Below, in pieces: positions 4,811-63,277 of a stretch of DNA of 64,000 bases. Position 1 is the stretch's first letter, and every line of letters starts with the position of its first letter. This DNA is from Podarcis bocagei (taxonomy: Eukaryota). The stretch is taken from NCBI GenBank assembly GCA_964188305.1, contig OZ076899.1; one strand, written 5' to 3'. Under the pieces are notes generated by a model that had not been told where the DNA came from, searched no databases, and saw only the letters and a program-made list of their open reading frames with translations. The position numbers were made by a program, and so were the translations under genes.

Positions 4811-5131
4811 TGTTATGTATTCAGTGGTCTGTGTTTGCCTGAGCTTGAGTCTGGGCTAAGGACTCTGAGCTCCTGTGTTCTGATTCGATACATGATATCC
4901 AATGACAGAACATTTCAGGATTTGGGCCTCTGCCATTGGCCCTTCAACTCTGAGTCATGATTCGCAGCTTGGAAGTTTAGACAGCCAACCGTGTTGGGAG
5001 TGGGAGTGGCCCGGGCCTTGAGAAATGTATATAAGCAGTTGCTTTGCCCCTGTTGTCCAGTTCTGTTAGTTCAATAAAGGTTCTTGCTGTTCTTGCTGTG
5101 TCTTGCCTCGTGGGAACCAACCTACACTTCT
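4811..5131 (+). mobile_element. Solo LTR (family distinct from the TGTCAGG family)
   Basis: Starts TGTTATG, TATATAA at 5028-5034, AATAAA at 5073-5078, flanked by 5-bp direct repeat GATTG (4806-4810 / 5132-5136). The 3' terminal CA is degenerate. Confidence 0.6.
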
Positions 5132-6464: not shown

Positions 6465-7053
6465 CAATGCTATTTTTCGGGGGGGGGATGCAGGGACGCA
6501 TATCCCTAAACATTTTGTGAATCTAATGGGAGAAGAAACTTTTTTTTAAAAAAAATAGTTTCTTCTTTAGAACGGTGAATTGTCAGTTCTGTTGCTACCC
6601 CCATTGGCAGCCTCATTTTTTGTCTCAGTGTTTTCTGAGTCTCAGACAGAAGCGAGTATTTAATGTCTGAAGTAGGAGTTGGAATCTAGCACTGTGATTG
6701 GTCAGTTTCATTGTTACCACCTCTGATGGCGGCTTCCTTTCCTTTCCCAGTGTTTCTTGAGTCTTAGATGAAAGCGAGCGTTTAATGTGTGAAGCAGTGT
6801 GGAATGTGGATGTGTGGTGTTTTACTGATGAAGGTTTGGCCTCATTGAGGGGGCAGTATTTCTTTCTTTCATTCAGTCATTTATTGAATTTATATACCAC
6901 CCCATACCTGGAAGTCTCAGGGTGGTTCACAAAAAAGATTTCAATATTTCAGTATGAGTATTTATTTTTCCAAATTTGAACTATAAAATGGTGATTTTCT
7001 TGAGTCTAAATGAGAGTACCCCTAAACACTTTATTTTAGAAAAAAAAGTACTG
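6465..7053. mobile_element. hAT-type non-autonomous element
   Basis: Imperfect TIR CAATGCTATTTTT / AAAAAAAGTACTG and perfect 8-bp TSD CATTAAAT (6457-6464 / 7054-7061). Confidence 0.8.
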
Positions 7054-7291: not shown

Positions 7292-7713
7292 CAGTGGTAC
7301 CTCGGGTTAAGTACTTCTTCCTGCCTCTCCTTGCTGCCTGATGCCCTGGTCCATGCAACCCTTCTGTAGCAATCTGCACTCGCCTCAACACTACAGGAGG
7401 ACTTTTTGATCATCCAGTATCAAAAACCCAATTTATTTTCAAGAGAAGACCTACCTCTGATTAAAATAATGCAGTGGTACCTTGGGTTAAGTACTTACTT
7501 CGTTCCGGAGGTCCATACTTTACCTGAAACTGTTCTTAACCTGAAGCACCACTTTAGCTAACAGGGCCTCCTGCTGCTGCCATGCTGCCAGAGCACAATT
7601 TCTGTTCTCATCCTGAAGCAAAGTTCTTAACCCAAGGTAATATTTCTGGGTTAGCGGAGTCTGTAACCTGAAGCATCTGTAACGTGAAGCGTATGTAACC
7701 CAAGGTACCACTG
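7292..7713. mobile_element. Composite family-A MITE carrying captured DNA (Pack-TIR-like)
   Basis: Outer TIR 7292-7316, 158-bp cargo 7314-7471 (about 96% identical, inverted, to 58061-58218), then a full MITE 7472-7713. TA at 7290-7291 and 7714-7715. Confidence 0.88.
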
Positions 7714-8277
7714 TATAAGGTTAACATAGTTCCCAGTGGGGTAGAACATTTCCTTTGCATGCATAGAGTTCCAGGTCCAATCACTGGCAGACCTTGGGGT
7801 GTCAAATTTCAGAGGCTCCCTGTGCAACAACACCAACATTTGGCACACTCTGCTTCCCATGCCCCATTCTAAAGCATAGTTGGGCATCCTCTGCAGTGCC
7901 CCTAGGCTCAATGCCCAATATGACCAAACTGGTTGCACTCCCCTAAATCTCCCTCTGGTCCAATCCTTGGCAGCTTCAGGTAGGGCTGGGAGGCCAATGG
8001 CCTGACTCAGCATAAGGCAGCTTTCTTTGTTCCTAGGTGCTCTTCTGGGCTGCTCATGCATCCACTATGTCGGATCACTTTATGCATATTTTTCAAGTTT
8101 GCATTCCCCCCCCCCCTTATGGGCTACCAACATTTGTATCAATGTACATGTGCATCAGTTTAATCTCAGAACAAACACACCCAAAATGGAAGCTGGAGGA
8201 GAATGCACCCAGCTTCTATTTGCGGCTGCAGTCCTAGCAATGTCTACTCAGAATTAAGTCCTAATTAATTCAGTGGG

Positions 8278-10814: not shown

Positions 10815-11308
10815 GGTCAGGCTTTTGGGGATCAGATCCCTCCCATGGTGGCAGCCCAGCATCAGAGCAACAATAAAAGTTCTTACCAAGCCATTTATTC
10901 AGTAATTCACAGAGAATGATGAAGAAATGCAGCCTTCCCTAATAATGGTGTTGCTCCAAGTAAAGTCCCACCTCCCTATGTCTCCCCTATTCGATGGCAC
11001 CCCTGCATTGGTTAATCTGAACTTTCTGCCTCTGAGCTCTCTGTTCTAATACCCGCCTGGTCCTGGGGTGTGTGTGTGTCAGGAATGCTTTCCAAGGACA
11101 CTGAGTCTGTCAGCTGTCTCTCCCCTGGTGCTGCTGCTTCTTCCTGCTGTTCCTCTTCCAATATTTCCCAGCTTCTGCCCTCTGCAGCCTCTGAACTATA
11201 CCCTTCTGCAAACCACTGTGCTAAATCTATACTGTCCTCCTGTTCTTGGGAAGGTTCAGAAGGAGCGGAGACAGTCCCCACCATTCCTCCTCAGTCCAGC
11301 CCCTGACA
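10815..11308 (-). mobile_element. Solo LTR, TGTCAGG...CCTGACA family (Gypsy-like), with internal ORF 11284-11012
   Basis: Termini GGTCAGG (degenerate)...CCTGACA, 5-bp TSD GCTAG/GCCAG, AATAAA on the minus strand near 10895, homologous to 29848-30322 and 39401-39906. Confidence 0.8.
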
Positions 11309-14164: not shown

Positions 14165-14628
14165 TGTCAGGCTTCAGGGAGTCTGATCCCTTCCCCCTCA
14201 CAGCAAGCTGCCAGTAATAGACAGACAAGAAGTTCTTACCATTGTAATTTGTTCAACGTTCATAGAGAGAGAGGACCGCTGCATCTCAGGTTAATGGCGT
14301 TTCTCCAAGTACTCTCCCCGCCCTTCCCTTCACAGTCGCCAACAGCACCCCCCCCCCCATTACAGTGGCTGCTTCAGGCCATTTGCCTCTTAGCTTTCTG
14401 CTCTCTCACTTTCACTGCTCACCAGGTTCTGGGAGAAGGGGGGTCTGGAATGCTCTCTAATGATAACGTGTCAGCCAGCTGTTCTGGCACCGCTTCTCCC
14501 CCCCTTCTCCCATTATCTCCCAGCTTTGTCCCTCATCTGTCTCAGACCCACGGCCTTCTGCAAACCACTGTTGTAAATCTATTCTGTCTTCCCCTTCTCT
14601 GGGAACCATTCCTCCTCAGTCCAGTCCC
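14165..14628 (-). mobile_element. Solo LTR, TGTCAGG family (divergent subfamily), one end interrupted
   Basis: TGTCAGG at 14165 and homology to the other three copies up to CAGTCCAGTCCC (~14628). A GC-rich insert (~14629-14960) follows. Confidence 0.7.
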
Positions 14629-17267: not shown

Positions 17268-17560
17268 AGAAGAAGAAGAAGAAGAAGAAGAAGAAGAAGA
17301 AGAAGAAGAAGAAGAAGAAGAAGAAGAAGAAGAATTTGATATCCCGCTTTATCACTACCAGAAGGAGTCTCAAAGCGGCTAACATTCTCCTTTCCCTTCC
17401 TCCCCCACAACAAACACTCTGTGAGGTGAGTGGGGCTGAGAGACTTCAGAGAAGTGTGATTGGCCCAAGGTCACCCAGCAGCTGCATGTGGAGGAGCGGA
17501 GACGCGAACCCGGTTTCCCAGATTACGAGTCTACCGCTCTTAACCACTACACCACACTGG
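17268..17560 (-). mobile_element. CORE-SINE, Squam3 (Ther1/MIR-derived) type, with (CTT)n tail
   Basis: tRNA head (TGGTGTAGTGG A-box, GGTTCGCGTC B-box), CORE motif GGGTGACCTTGGGCCA, L2-like end, long (AAG)n at 17268-17333. Near-identical to 20644-20905 and 52360-52646. Confidence 0.88.
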
Positions 17561-20601: not shown

Positions 20602-20645
<44 letters not shown>

Positions 20646-21285
20646 GAAGAAGAAGAAGAAGAAGAAGAGTTTGGATTTGATATCCCGCCTTTCACTCCCC
20701 TTCAGGAGTCTCAAAGCGGCTAACATTCTCCTTTCCCTTCCTCCCCCACAACAAACACTCTGTGAGGTGAGTGGGGCTGAGAGACTTCACAGAAGTGTGA
20801 CTGGCCCAAGGTCACCCAGCAGCTGCATGTGGAGGAGCGGAGACGCGAACCCGGTTTCCCAGATTACGTGACTACCGCTCTTAACCACTACACCACACTG
20901 GCTCCTATAATAATAATAATAATAATAATTTTTACCTGACCCTTCCCAGCCAGGACTGGGCTCAGGGCGGCTAACATCAAAGTATGATATATTAAAAACA
21001 TAAATTATAACTGGGTTAAAATATGCATAGAACTGCATCCCTTTAGCGAAAATAACGTAAAAGTGCATTATGTTAGGGAACATTATCTTGCAAAGTATGT
21101 ATTTTAGGCAAAATTGCATAGAAAATGTTTATATTAAGGCAAATTTGCACAAAAAATCTGTGCATTATCATCAGTTCTTAAAAAAAGAAATGCCAAACGG
21201 ATATGAAAATGTGGAAAACTAAAATTAAGATTTGTAATACCAAAAAACTGAAAGAAACCATAATTGACAGATTGACCTATTCCTA
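20454..21285. mobile_element. hAT-type MITE (TAGGGATG TIR family) interrupted by (AAT)n, a Squam3-type SINE and an L2 tail
   Basis: Ends TGGGGATG...TATTCCTA, imperfect 8-bp TSD GCTACAGA/GCTGAAGA, body homologous to 30656-31078. Confidence 0.6.
20644..20905 (-). mobile_element. CORE-SINE, Squam3 type
   Basis: Full-length, CpG-intact copy with (AAG)n tail, flanked on both sides by (AAT)n. Confidence 0.88.
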
Positions 21286-29300: not shown

Positions 29301-29847
29301 GAAATAATTTTGGACATTTGTGGAAATGCCATATGTATTATTTGTAGATGATGAGCTAAGCATTGCCATTTGATGAATGGAATTTATCACTTATTCTCTG
29401 AAGGGAAAGCCTTCTGTATCATTTAATTTCCCAGTCTCTATTAGACAAACACACTGGAACTAAAGAAGCCCCCAAAAGATGGAGAAATGTGCCCTTAACT
29501 CAGAAAACTCCCTGTTAAAATTTGACCTTCTGGAGCAAAGCGACATATAAGAGCCAGGGAAGGCTGGTGGTTTGGAAACAGCCTTGGGGCAAATTATGAA
29601 ATGATAGGAGAAGTGGTAGAAATGTTGTATACTGATTTGCTGGAAATATTGTATATGGATTTGTTCCCATTTTGAAGAAAAGCAGCACATACCATTCAAT
29701 ACATAGAAATAGATATGCACACACATTCATAGAAACAAGGGAAGTTGCCTTATACTGACTCATATCATTGGCTGATCACTGCAGCATTGCCTACACTGAC
29801 TGGCAGAAGCTCTCCAGGTTTCAAACAGGGGTCTCTCCCCAGATATT

Positions 29848-30322
29848 GTCAGGCTCAGGGAATTGGATCCCTCCCATGGTGGCAGCCCAGAATCAGAGAA
29901 ACGATAAAAGTTCTTACCAAGCAATTTATTCAATAATTTACAGAGAACAATGAAGGAATACAGCCTTCCTAATAATGGTGTTGCTCCAAGTGAAGTCCCA
30001 TCCCCTTACATCTCCCCTATTCGACATTACTCCTGCATTGGTTAATCTGAGCTTTCTGTCTCTGAGTTATCCATTCTAATACCCTCAATGCTTGCCTGGT
30101 TCTGGGGGGGGGGGCAGGAATATGCTTTCCAAGGGCACTGAGTCTGTCAGCTGTCTCTCCCCTGGTGCTTCTCCTCCTTCCTGCTGCCACCCCCAGTTTC
30201 TCCACTCTGCAGCCTCTGAACTATGCCCTTCTGCAAACCACTGTTCTAAATCTATACAGTCCTCCTGTTCTTAGGAAGAGGAGGGCGGCCCCTAACATTC
30301 CTCTTCAGTCCAGTCCCTGACA
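29848..30322 (-). mobile_element. Solo LTR, TGTCAGG...CCTGACA family
   Basis: Perfect TGTCAGG/CCTGACA ends, perfect 5-bp TSD GATAT (29843-29847 / 30323-30327). Lies within a tRNA-SINE (~29725-30498). Confidence 0.88.
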
Positions 30323-39400: not shown

Positions 39401-39906
39401 TGTCAGGGACCGTGCTGAGGAGGGCTGCACTGAGGAGGAATGGTGGGAGACCCCCCTCCCCCTGACCCTGAATCTTCCCAGGAGAAGGAAGGCAGAAAAA
39501 ATTTAGAACAGTCGTTTGCAGAGGGGCATAGTTCAGAAGGCAGTAGCTGGGAAATACTGGATGGGGAACAACTAGCAGAAGAAACACTGGAAGAGAGAAT
39601 GTTAACTGATTCACAGTCTCTGAACAGCATCCCCACCCACCCATCCCCAAGGGCACGGAGAGCTCAGAGAGTGTTAGAACAGAAAGCGCAGAGGGTGCAA
39701 ACTCAGATTACATGACATAGGAGTGATGTAGATTAATAGGGACGGAGGAGGAGTGAGCCTTAATTGGGAGCACTGCCATTCTAGGGAGACGCTTTCTTTT
39801 CTCTCTCACTGTGTTTATTAAAGAAACTAACTGGTAAGACTTCCCTTTCATTTGATCTGCTTATTTACTGCCATGGGTGAGGAAGCCAATTCCCCGAAGC
39901 CTGACA
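39401..39906 (+). mobile_element. Solo LTR, TGTCAGG...CCTGACA family, with open 91-codon ORF 39440-39715
   Basis: TGTCAGG/CCTGACA ends, 5-bp TSD GTGTG/GTTTG, ATTAAA near 39817. Confidence 0.85.
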
Positions 39907-52359: not shown

Positions 52360-52360
<1 letters not shown>

Positions 52361-52646
52361 GGTGTAGTGGTTAAGAGCGGTAGTCTCGTAATCTGGGGAA
52401 CCGGGTTCGCTTCCCTGCTCCTCCACATGCAGCTGCCTGGTGACCTTGGGCCAGTCACACTTCTTTGAAGTCTCTCAGCCCCACTCACCTCACAGAGTGT
52501 TTGTTGTGGGGGAGGAAGGGAAAGGAGAATGTTAGCTGCTTTGAGACTCCTTAAAGGGAGTGAAAGGCGGGATATCAAATCCAAACTCCTCCTCCTCCTC
52601 CTCTTCTTCTTCTTCTTCTTCTTCTTCTTCTTCTTCTTCTTCTTCT
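52360..52646 (+). mobile_element. CORE-SINE, Squam3 type
   Basis: Near-identical to the 17.3-kb and 20.7-kb copies, (CCT)n(CTT)n tail, directly preceded by (ATT)n. Confidence 0.88.
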
Positions 52647-57452: not shown

Positions 57453-57834
57453 CTCTGTGTGTAATTGCTGCATTAAAAGAAATAATTCTCTTTCCTTCTC
57501 CGCAAAGTGCAAACACACTGTATGTTCACAATGGGGCCATAATGGCCTAATTCAATTATTGAGGGTCACGTTCCATGTACTGCTGTCTGATTTTCTTGTC
57601 AATCAATACAAACTTCATTTTAAAAAGCAAGCAAGTGTTGAGGGATATAGGGGGGTGGAGATGTTGTGGAAGGTTGAAGCCCAGCAGTTATGTAAGGTCT
57701 GCAGGACTTGTCTTTTGCTATTTGTAGCAAGTTCCCACACACACCCACTGAAGTTATGTGGAACACCTGGAAACAAGACAGTCTTGCTGCAAATGGTAAA
57801 CTGAAGACAAGTAAGAATCATAGATCCCACTGTA

Positions 57835-58060
57835 CAGTGGTACCTTGGGTTACATACGCTTCAGGTTACAGACTCCGCTAACCCAGAAATAGTACCTCAG
57901 GTTAAGAACTTTGCTTCAGGATGAGAACAGAAATCGTGATCCGGCAGCGCGGCAGCAGCAGGAGGCCCCATTAGCTAAAGTGGTGCTTCAGGTTAAGAAC
58001 AGTTTCAGGTTAAGAATGGACCTCCAGAATGAATTAAGTACTTAACCCAAGGTACCACTG
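57835..58060. mobile_element. Tc1/mariner MITE, family A (probable donor locus of the DNA captured at 7314-7471)
   Basis: TIR CAGTGGTACCTTGGGTTA...TAACCCAAGGTACCACTG, TA TSD. Confidence 0.9.
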
Positions 58061-59769
58061 TATTATTTTAATCAGAAGTAGGTCTTCTCTTGAAAATAAA
58101 TTGGGTTTATGATACTGGATGATCAAAAAGTCCTCCTGTAGTGTTGAGGCGACTGCAGATTGCTACAGAAGGGTTGCATGGGCCAGGGCATCAGGCAGCA
58201 AGGAGAGGCAGGACGAAGAGGCAGCCATCAGATAAGATAACCCAACAAAAAGTATACCTAGCCTACAGCTGCATCTAACTAGGAGAAGGTACCATCCCTG
58301 AAGCAACAACTCACATATAACAGCTGTTGCGTGGAGGCACTGATCCTGTGCGGTGCAGGGTGTTGTTTTGCAAATGGATTTCCCAAGAGGAAAGCCACTT
58401 ATGAATCAGCACCCTGCGATACTGAAACATTCATGCAACAGCTGTTTAATCCTGTAGAGCCCAGCGGCTTCCCAGCAGAGGAGCCACTTGCAAAGGAGCA
58501 CCCCACAGAATTCATCCCTCTGCTCTCAAATGGGAAGCAGGGAAGGCGACACAGCATCGCCTTCCCATGCTCCCTTGTGGCCACATGTTTCATTAGGTTT
58601 TGCTTTTTAAAAATAAATAAATAACTAATTAAACTTTAGCTCCACTAATTCAGGACTGGTTCCAGGGGAGGTGGGTCCTCAGGCTGGCTCAGTGTGGATT
58701 GGCCTAATTGCCTCCCTCCTGGATCAGGGCCAAGGGGCAGATTGGGTGGAGGCTATGTGCTGCCCTGCAGGGAAGGTGTAAAGCTGCCTTATCTTGAGTC
58801 TGACCATGGATCTATCTGGCTCCAAACTGTCTCCTCTGACTGGTGCTCCGAACTTCCAGACAAAATCGCTTTCCCAACTTCAATTCCTGACATATTTTAT
58901 TTTGGCTGAACATGCCAGACTTGAACTTGGAGCCTTCTCTGTGTGGAACATGTGCTCTGTACCACAAAGCACCATGACCTCCTCAGATGGAACACAGACC
59001 GCTTGAGGAGGTCCTTTATACCAACCTTTATCAACCTTGTTCTCCATCAGATGTTTTGGACCACGACTTCCATCAGCCCCAGTCAGCACAGCTGGCGGTC
59101 CGAAACATCTGATGGAGAACAAGGTTGGCAATTTCCTGCCCCATGGTAGAACAGCTCATTTTCCATTCCCGTTCCCTGCCTGAATACAGGCCCTGAATCA
59201 AGAGGAAGGTTCAGGCATCTTGAAATTGTTTCAGAACAAGGTTAGCCCCCACCCCACATCCTCATATGGAAACCAGCTAAGTGCAAAGATCAATGTATTC
59301 ACCGCTGAACATTTCCTGGAGAAACATTGCATCCTCCCTCATTTACTTGATTATCTTGAGGGTGAATCAATCAAAGGAATGGCAATGCATGTTGCACAGG
59401 CTACAACCCTGTGGGTGTCCATTAGAGGGCTATCTGCCCAGTGATAATGGAACTGCTGATTAACAAGCATGCAGCGCTGTGGCTTGGGCATTTATTTGTT
59501 TCAAGGAGAAGAACTGCTGCTCGATGACAGTCCAGCATTTAGCAGCTGGTTTGTTAGCATCCTGCTGTCCTGAATGCTTCACATAACTCACTCAGATGGT
59601 GCCGACATTGTTGGTCCATCCATCCATCTCCTGACTTTCTTGCAAAAGGCAACGGTCTGGGAATTTGGTTGAGAACGTGATCTAATTTGGGAGACAGAGA
59701 GAGAAAGTTTCCTTGCATTTGTTACTGAGGCCTGGAACTGCTACAGCCACTGTGATGCTCTCCAGAAGT

Positions 59770-61439: not shown

Positions 61440-63277
61440 GAGGGACTTCCGGGTTGGCGCGATCGGGAAATGGCGGATTCCCTCCGAGCTCCGGAGGGAA
61501 TCGGCTCAGCGGTGGATGGGTCTTTGCCGTGCCGGCGACACGGGGACCCTTAAAAACCGCAGGTGCGGAAGCCTGCGGACTGAAGACTCGGCGGGTGCCT
61601 TAAGCGCCCCCCCTGATTCGCAATGAGCCTTTTTAAAGGCTACGGAGGGGATACAGGGGACGGCGTGGCACTGAGAGTCGACCGCTACCGCTGCTGAGCG
61701 AAGCCGCGAGCCATAACCGGAGAGCGCTGACTTCCTTCCTTGAAATTCGGACTGAAAAAAGAACCCGTGAGTAATTTGGAACTGAACTTTAAAACTTTTA
61801 CCTTTTGAATTTGAGACGACCGGGGGGTGTGCTAAAAGGAAGTCCCCACACCCCCCCTTGCAGACGATCCAGAGCAAAGAAATAAGAACTAAGCTGGAGT
61901 GCCTACCCTGTAAAGGGTGAGTCTTAAAAAGTCAGTAACTTCCAAGATTTAGAAAGGTAAATTTGAGCAGGAGAGTGGAGTGTTGGAAGAGTCTTTGTTT
62001 TGTGGTAAACAACCCTCCCTCCCGGGCCCGGGAGCGACCTGATTTGGAGTCTGTATAGAGGAGCAGAATTTGACAGCTGTCAAAAGCTGTCAAATGGACT
62101 ATTAATAGTGAAAAAAAATTGCTGTTTAAGACCTCTCCGGATTAAAAGGAGTTACAATTGAACTAAAATTTTGAGAAACAAAGAAACAATAATAGGACAG
62201 AGGATTGTTGGAGAAAAGGTTACTCAGTAACCAGATTCCCTCTAGGGGGAATTCTGTGGAATTACAATGGCTGTGGGTGGAAAGATACTGAGAGAAATCG
62301 AAAGAATGTTCTCACTGGTGGGAACCCTACAGGAGCAGACTACAGCTATGAGTAAACAATTGACGACCTTGGATTTGGAAACAAGTAGTTCTGCTGAAAG
62401 TAATGAGGGCCTGAGTGAGAAAGAACCCACAGCTGAATTTGAAACAATAAACAAAGAAGAGGAGAAGACAAAACAAGAAAGAGAACAAGTTATCTGGGAA
62501 AGTACTAACCAGAAGCCGGCATCTGGAGAACACAAGCAAGGAGACTATTGGATTAAATCCACTTTAAGCCTACGAAAGATACAGAAGATGAAAGTGGAGG
62601 CCCTGGGACTTTATGGAATTCAGGAGCTCGAAATAAAGAAGTACAATTGGGGCCTCCACATAGACTTTGATTTTGACTATCAGCAAGACTTAGGCCTTGT
62701 GGAAATTCCTCAGCAGTTGCCTTTAAATATGGGAAGAGACTATGGACTGATTGGATTGATTGTTAAGGAAATCTTTCGAGACTCGATGATAGACAAAAAG
62801 GACTACCAACAAAACCGGCGGAGAGGGACTAAAAGAGAATTGAGAGCCTCGGATATCCGGAATCCAGGCTAAAAACTGTTAATTTGGACATGTCTTGGGA
62901 AAGGACGCAAAGCGGGGAGGGGAGGGAGGGAAGTATCAAATTTAAACAACACTCAAGACCAGGGGGTTTAGTATTAAGAAAATTATGTAAGAAAAAAATG
63001 AGAAATCGAGGGAAGAGAATTGGGGTCCAACTTAGGGAAAATTTATTTTTGTTTATTATAAAAGGACTAACATTAAGATGGAAGAAATGCCAACTTGCTG
63101 ACATAAGTTTGGGAATAGGGATGCAGGGGAGGGTGTGGGGGGAAGTCAAGGACTAGGGTTAGAAAATAAGATTTTCGGGAACTATCCATGTTTGTTGTTT
63201 TTTATGTTTGTTTTGGTGTGTTGTTTGTGTTTATATAAAATGTGAAAACCCAATAAAAATATTTAAAAAAAAAAAAA
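61440..63277 (+). mobile_element. Young non-autonomous poly(A) retroelement, L1-derived / HAL1-like
   Basis: Perfect 18-bp TSD AGAAAAAACAGACGTGTG (61422-61439 / 63278-63295), AATAAA at 63252-63257 plus A-tail, CpG-rich 5' end with AAATGGCGG (YY1-like), no RT or endonuclease coding. Confidence 0.88.
62267..62872 (+). CDS. 201-aa ORF inside the retroelement; possibly a diverged L1 ORF1p-like protein
   Basis: Uninterrupted ORF with strong Kozak context (ACAATGG), N-terminal heptad-like segment and a basic C-terminus. Similarity to ORF1p is by eye only. Confidence 0.45.
   Translation: MAVGGKILREIERMFSLVGTLQEQTTAMSKQLTTLDLETSSSAESNEGLSEKEPTAEFETINKEEEKTKQEREQVIWESTNQKPASGEHKQGDYWIKSTLSLRKIQKMKVEALGLYGIQELEIKKYNWGLHIDFDFDYQQDLGLVEIPQQLPLNMGRDYGLIGLIVKEIFRDSMIDKKDYQQNRRRGTKRELRASDIRNPG

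Follow-up and report, generated by a model that had tools for sequence, protein, structure and literature searches.

The peptide encoded in a family of lizard solo LTRs is probably the C-terminal tail of a Ty3/Gypsy Pol protein

We conclude, with a probability of roughly 0.87, that a peptide encoded inside a family of LTRs in Podarcis bocagei comprises the last ~110 Pol residues of a chromodomain-bearing Ty3/Gypsy element and likely acts as a disordered tether for integrase. Taken on its own, the tether role would fall a little short of even odds and is suggested by the position and composition of the peptide. Four copies of the LTR lie in the stretch of DNA that we analyzed (64,000 nucleotides of contig OZ076899.1, assembly GCA_964188305.1; hereafter the window). 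A first-pass annotation had read the LTR frame as an accessory gene with its own start codon.

The solo LTR of subfamily A (39401..39906, plus strand; "39k") runs from TGTCAGG to CCTGACA between the flanks GTGTG and GTTTG, which agree at four of five letters. Contigs from three further runs, which carry three organism labels, span its right junction, and contigs break inside the repeat. The minus strand carries two copies of subfamily B, at 10816..11308 ("11k") and 29847..30322 ("30k", with ATATC on both sides), and one of subfamily C at 14165..14628 ("14k"), which has a damaged 5' terminus and has lost its first C tract. The four related LTR-like elements thus lie about where the first-pass annotation had placed them, but not all termini are as it described: 14k has no 5' TGTCA and 11k ends in CCTGACC. 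The motifs it quoted are present in the four elements.

Within 39k, positions 39402..39715 (plus strand, like the other 39k features given here) hold the remnant of a Pol (integrase) C-terminal tail, which in 39k is interrupted at the first C tract. Its blocks are, in order, an acidic segment with EEWW, a C-rich polyproline stretch, an acidic segment with SWEI, a second proline tract, and SPR followed by basic residues. The ATG at 39440..39442, a start codon without conservation, spans the GAA-TGG (Glu-Trp) codons of the read-through frame, and the C-rich tract at 39451..39462 varies in length between copies and sets which upstream frame meets the motifs. From this ATG 39k has 91 open codons, and it is the only window copy open from the ATG to the basic block. 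The ATG frames of 11k and 14k span only part of the motifs: that of 11k (11284-11012) quits the motif frame after LESIPD, and the motif frame of 14k breaks after SWEIM. In 30k it is the read-through frame, interrupted by stops, that contains the motifs, and the ATG is off frame. The translation previously given for 30k hopped between frames, since its ATG frame reads MLGAALLFLRTGG... whereas EQEDCIDL is in frame from LTR base 2. An ATG in the motif frame was therefore confirmed for three window copies (for part of the motifs in 11k and 14k) but not for 30k, where the supposed whole-codon spacing between ATG and motifs fails.

The coding stretch sits in the U3 part of the LTR, as had been proposed. 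A putative poly(A)-signal-like hexamer, ATTAAA, lies downstream on the same strand at 39817..39822 by sequence. A(A/T)TAAA hexamers occur at LTR bases 417, 410 and 393 in three of the four copies, as the first-pass annotation expected, but 14k has none. An alignment of the four window copies also revealed an octamer 3' of the hexamer that is the same in all four, TGGTAAGA (39832..39839 in 39k), which we take to be splice-donor-like; as a candidate donor it could join solo LTRs to host exons. Elsewhere the window holds dispersed repeats (1175-1695, 7314-7717, 57816-58218; 17362-17560, 20611-20901, 52360-52644) that correspond to two putative types: an inverted-repeat element with TACAGTGGTACC ends and, behind AAT/AAG microsatellites, a SINE-like element. 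A 201-codon ORF in a purine-skewed stretch (62267-62872) is presumably LINE ORF1-like.

Searches of the 1.6-Gb genome with each window element returned ~1,800-2,500 first-look candidates, overlapping between queries. Among the 40 that were scored per search, the closest relatives were 76-88% identical, and these best copies were spread over contigs C1-C17. We aligned 101 distinct copies: 30 of group A (39k type), 41 of B (11k and 30k types) and 30 of C (14k type). Both ends could be located in 66 genomic copies; in 52 of these the flanks agree at four or five of five letters, and the copies are therefore solo LTRs bordered by 5-bp duplications. Solo LTRs arise through recombination between the two LTRs of an element. 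The window itself has no Pol match anywhere in its 64 kb. The four elements are thus genuine solo LTRs from a Ty3/Gypsy family of high copy number, and on this point the first-pass annotation was right.

Evidence that the LTR frame belongs to Pol comes from copies that still adjoin an element. When we searched by pattern for a purine run preceding the LTR, we found copies behind integrase and chromodomain sequence, and a search with the integrase-chromodomain region gave 30 loci. We used the 17 with a readable junction, sister LTR families included, and left out 13: seven segmental duplicates that had lost the junction, three loci without one, one interrupted locus and two young-sister copies. 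At 10 of the 17 junctions the chromodomain tryptophan is in frame with LTR base 2 across the polypurine tract (PPT), at five spacings, each a multiple of three (114, 117 three times, 120, 129 and 132 four times). The other seven are off frame, four by one and three by two. These include the loci nearest to window types, L090 (over its length 71% identical to 39k) and L086 (77% identical to 14k), at each of which a separate break interrupts the purine-rich run ahead of the LTR. At L093, a single frame without any shift contains both the LTR motif and a Chromo match from Pfam (E 6.7e-8). Chromo matches are above the cut-off in L090, L093, L123 and L114, and the order reverse transcriptase (RT)-RNase H-integrase was found 5' of such LTRs in L120, L121, L122 and L124. 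Pol accordingly runs in frame into the LTR, and the separate gene of the first-pass annotation gives way to a Pol tail, the very result that the annotation had said would refute it.

No gag match was seen 5' in L121, L122 or L124, which suggests that these are internally deleted elements. Neighboring stretches and searches with RT, gag and a guessed primer pattern yielded no intact or two-LTR element of groups A-C and no A-C junction between 5' LTR and gag (gag in 0 of 29 primer-pattern matches). The A-C transcription start and primer site are for this reason borrowed from sister elements.

Several loci have histories of their own. In the subfamily of L292-L297 and L074, the LTR opens with a short duplication that contains both a polypurine-tract copy and another TGTCAGG; three of the seven seen are in frame. 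At C7 15.05-15.35 Mb and C2 19.75-19.82 Mb (L080-L085, L087-L089) one junction was multiplied by segmental duplication. In L120 a young-sister LTR (6647-6937) has inserted into the integrase sequence of an old element with a 39k-type LTR at its end, and in L122 an LTR-like start (4845-4947) lies directly before RT.

The ATG is a by-product of Glu-Trp codons and is incidental. It is formed by the overlap of GAA and TGG in the E-E-W-W motif of the base-2 frame, and it is missing where the Glu codon is GAG. Although 76 of the 84 copies that span both anchors (among the 101 aligned) have the ATG, the frame that joins the motif is the ATG frame in 28, the LTR-base-2 frame in 35 and the third frame in 21 (9/17/4 in A, 14/10/13 in B and 5/8/4 in C), so that agreement with the ATG is no better than chance across three frames. 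In the stretch before the ATG, 57 of 64 copies are free of stops in the read-through frame and 59 of 64 contain a stop in the ATG frame. The distance from the LTR start to the Trp preserves the frame in 61 of 64 despite differences between groups (40, 25, 28, 22). In five of nine sister junctions the acidic-Trp motif is present without an ATG and in other codons. A further subfamily has the motif without the ATG in five of six copies, and the frame crosses the C tract in all six.

These counts bear directly on the proposal that the ATG starts an independent U3 gene, similar to MMTV sag and spread as a cassette by solo LTRs. The frequency of the ATG, its agreement with part of the motifs in three window copies and two matching database proteins would fit such a gene. 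So would solo copies whose ATG frame reaches the basic block: among the 83 with a 5' end, 11 have an open frame that far, six from the ATG and five by read-through. However, only 28 of 84 copies have the ATG in the motif frame, some sisters retain the motif but lack the ATG, and Pol joins another frame. Furthermore, private changes in solo copies are neutral and include stops at the expected share (below), contrary to the view that solo LTRs scatter a selected cassette, and both database proteins look like gene calls on decayed copies. We regard an ATG-started gene as largely refuted, with next to no probability left to it.

The LTR does carry a selected coding sequence, as the first-pass annotation had supposed, and the peptide is conserved to a degree that chance would not produce. 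From pairwise distances of natural copies, taken between groups minus within and bootstrapped, net dN/dS in the read-through frame was 0.17 for A-B (0.08-0.34) and 0.16 for B-C (0.08-0.30), with 1.05-1.61 in the shifted frames. Overall it was 0.15-0.17 (95% bootstrap 0.07-0.34), compared with 0.96-1.61 in shifted frames; the A-C synonymous distance is saturated. In a non-coding control one of nine cells was clearly below 1 (A-C, 0.41). Variants found in at least four copies comprised 25 nonsynonymous and 34 synonymous changes and no stops, whereas singletons comprised 322, 83 and 23, respectively (Fisher p 2e-8). The singletons fit the neutral expectation and the shifted frames (stops 23/322; 7.5% expected). 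Variants common to many copies are thus constrained and private ones neutral, which argues that selection acted in replicating elements and ended on insertion. Purifying selection is shown along the replicating lineages, and the solo copies decay neutrally. The 8-13 codons 5' of the ATG gave no signal in the variant test, for which they are few.

Length changes bear on coding in part. After four rows with failed anchors were dropped, modal segment lengths in frame differ by threes (57/66/66, 60/63/54 and 42/42/42) and those past the stop do not (42/41/47); the exception to three-base changes is the C tract of B. Common indels come in threes in 14 of 32 cases in coding sequence versus 0 of 27 in non-coding sequence, many of them in slipping tracts. 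Indel events per group are not decisive.

Might the peptide be read-through that is simply tolerated, with the constraint imposed by DNA or RNA signals of U3? The stretch doubles as promoter DNA, and the tails of sister families vary greatly in sequence and length (100-209 aa). Yet the constraint is confined to one frame and leaves synonymous sites free to change (net dS 0.75-1.1 versus dN 0.12-0.17 in the read-through frame), common variants contain no stops, and lengths change by threes. We consider this explanation highly improbable.

The C tract of group B raises a mixed history, with a Pol tail by origin and a B master whose shifted C tract let the ATG start a short separate peptide. The commonest tract length in B (10 of 37 copies) favors the ATG frame, the common variants of B are still constrained (8 nonsynonymous, 11 synonymous) and no B-type LTR junction with Pol was found. 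Against this, B tract lengths fall about equally often in each of the three frames (14, 10 and 13), as for a slipping C run, the read-through frame 5' of the ATG is open in 25 of 27 B copies, and B queries and copies were selected by similarity to the window copies. A mixed history is in our judgment very unlikely, and a Pol tail throughout is the reading that we follow below.

Young full-length sister elements have the same arrangement in undamaged form: Pol stays open for 100-209 codons into the LTR, and the sequence and length of this extension differ greatly between families. The LTR pairs of L114, L117 and L126 are 98-99% identical, and an element on C19 (near 4.883-4.890 Mb; L185, L112) has identical 756-bp LTRs and a 5-bp duplication. 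L113 and L116 belong to the same set of very young sister chromoviruses with two LTRs, whose pairs are 98-100% identical. L114 has a 741-codon frame with matches to RNase H, integrase, SH3 and chromodomain that continues into the LTR; the best match of this sister among solved structures is Ty3 Gag-Pol (E 2e-61). The C19 element has 544 open codons and then 209 more inside the LTR. Young sisters cross the polypurine tract as Asp|Val-Arg, and their tails are ordered acidic, S/T-P, basic. The protein of a sister element shares 90% identity with a database entry labelled Podarcis muralis, and Pol proteins of that species in the database already include the sister tail.

The same sisters indicate where the tail ends. 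In all four examined, the 11 nt behind the 5' LTR are complementary to the LTR, at bases 280, 280, 355 and 610, and the Pol frame stops at LTR bases 304, 304, 379 and 631, 21-24 nt beyond the point where the self-primer begins. Because self-priming draws on the RNA's 5' end (PMC4600332), the tail would fill U3 and stop just past the inferred start site. With transcription starting ~20-25 nt before the stop, the promoter of a solo LTR would not transcribe the tail; for groups A-C this is by analogy with the sisters.

Database searches with the window peptide gave two matches, of 83 and 93 aa, among four candidates near its length, and none among 161 longer protein candidates. It had no match in solved structures at E 10, no usable match in Atlas and only below-cut-off matches in Pfam; these searches returned no homologue or structure that gives the tail a function. 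ATG ORFs called in these solo LTRs are to be annotated with caution, as Pol fossils that are neither host nor accessory genes. A wider search with sister chromodomain plus tail gave 670 matches, nearly all to the chromodomain only. Of the 150 rows listed, 64 were chosen by eye; among these, 29 showed a Gypsy signature, nine had at least 60 residues behind the match and one (P0024) had a like acidic-then-basic tail. Among the matches listed, a long acidic/basic tail occurs in few proteins, and the named ones are all from Podarcis. Raw RNA reads have little bearing on expression: six partly fitting reads, in 6-13% of four runs, all diverge from the locus, and none lie in the flanks.

We propose that the full-length RNA would be translated to Gag-Pol, with the Pol frame passing from the integrase chromodomain through the polypurine tract into the 3' LTR. 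The integrase would then end in the chromodomain plus ~110 low-complexity residues from the 3' LTR copy of U3, and by analogy with the sisters the tail would be translated only from the 3' LTR of full-length RNA. The peptide looks disordered; its short acidic-aromatic motifs and SP-preceded basic block could fit docking and nuclear import, and it may dock integrase to chromatin or aid nuclear entry. Solo LTRs would keep the tail as a fossil after LTR-LTR recombination. A broader and tentative idea, less probable than the tether role, is that the whole U3 might encode a second integrase targeting module behind the chromodomain, a vertebrate counterpart of the CR motif of plant centromeric elements. 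It would combine acidic-aromatic docking of a host factor with a phospho-switchable basic block for nuclear or nucleosome binding and would stop just behind the transcription start. A likeness of D-L-E-Q-W-F-A-E to p53 TAD2 (DDIEQWFTED, PMC3561959) was set aside as a weak lead because several sister copies have Gly or Arg in place of the Trp. The tail of this vertebrate integrase is short and was strongly selected, and it offers a lead to chromatin access and site choice. One stretch of DNA here is both promoter region and coding tail, and its thousands of solo copies allow dating.

Among known systems, MMTV sag and lentiviral nef are U3 coding sequences with their own start and transcript; the lizard frame likewise codes in U3 but is continuous with Pol. 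To our knowledge, the integrase targeting peptides of Ty1 and MLV are not LTR-encoded. The Ty1 integrase C-terminus docks Pol III AC40 (PMC10050235) and that of MLV docks BET proteins (PMC4027182). The lizard tail is similarly a short C-terminal segment that could dock a host factor, with no sequence likeness claimed.

Closer relatives are the Tf1/sushi chromoviruses, with LTR termini TGTYANR...CNTNACA (PMC3601003). The lizard TGTCAGG...CCTGACA fits, and the elements share the chromodomain at the integrase C-terminus, a short target duplication and, in the sister elements only, a self-complementary primer site. On the features tested the elements probably belong here (see also PMC6317226). The U3 of sushi is T-rich (bioRxiv 10.1101/2022.12.06.519325; PMC3601003; PMC4600332), whereas the lizard U3 is purine-rich coding sequence; an LTR-encoded Pol tail is not described for Tf1/sushi in the parts of those papers available to us.

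In the open literature (subscription papers, Repbase and Dfam aside) our searches turned up no account, for lizards or any other vertebrate, of a Pol tail that is conserved and encoded in the LTR. The beet chromoviruses Bingo1-4 and Bingo7 have the same layout, a chromodomain 5' of the PPT and an ORF that extends into the flanking LTR (PMC3605345). They form a plant clade with a type II chromodomain, and the accessible text of that paper describes neither a conserved LTR peptide nor a selection test. In group A of the CRM centromeric retrotransposons, the polyprotein extends into the 3' LTR and its conserved LTR-encoded part is a targeting domain (PMC3059260, PMC6317226). The lizard element likewise has a conserved Pol segment past the PPT inside the 3' LTR. 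In CRM, however, the CR motif replaces the chromodomain, whereas the lizard element keeps its chromodomain 5' of the PPT and adds the tail; CRM elements are centromeric and from plants, while the lizard copies lie on most large contigs of a vertebrate host. Pol running into the 3' LTR is thus already known from plant chromoviruses. What we did not see described for vertebrates in the literature searched is a conserved acidic/basic tail that fills U3 behind a chromodomain, a finding that is real but less surprising than had been claimed.
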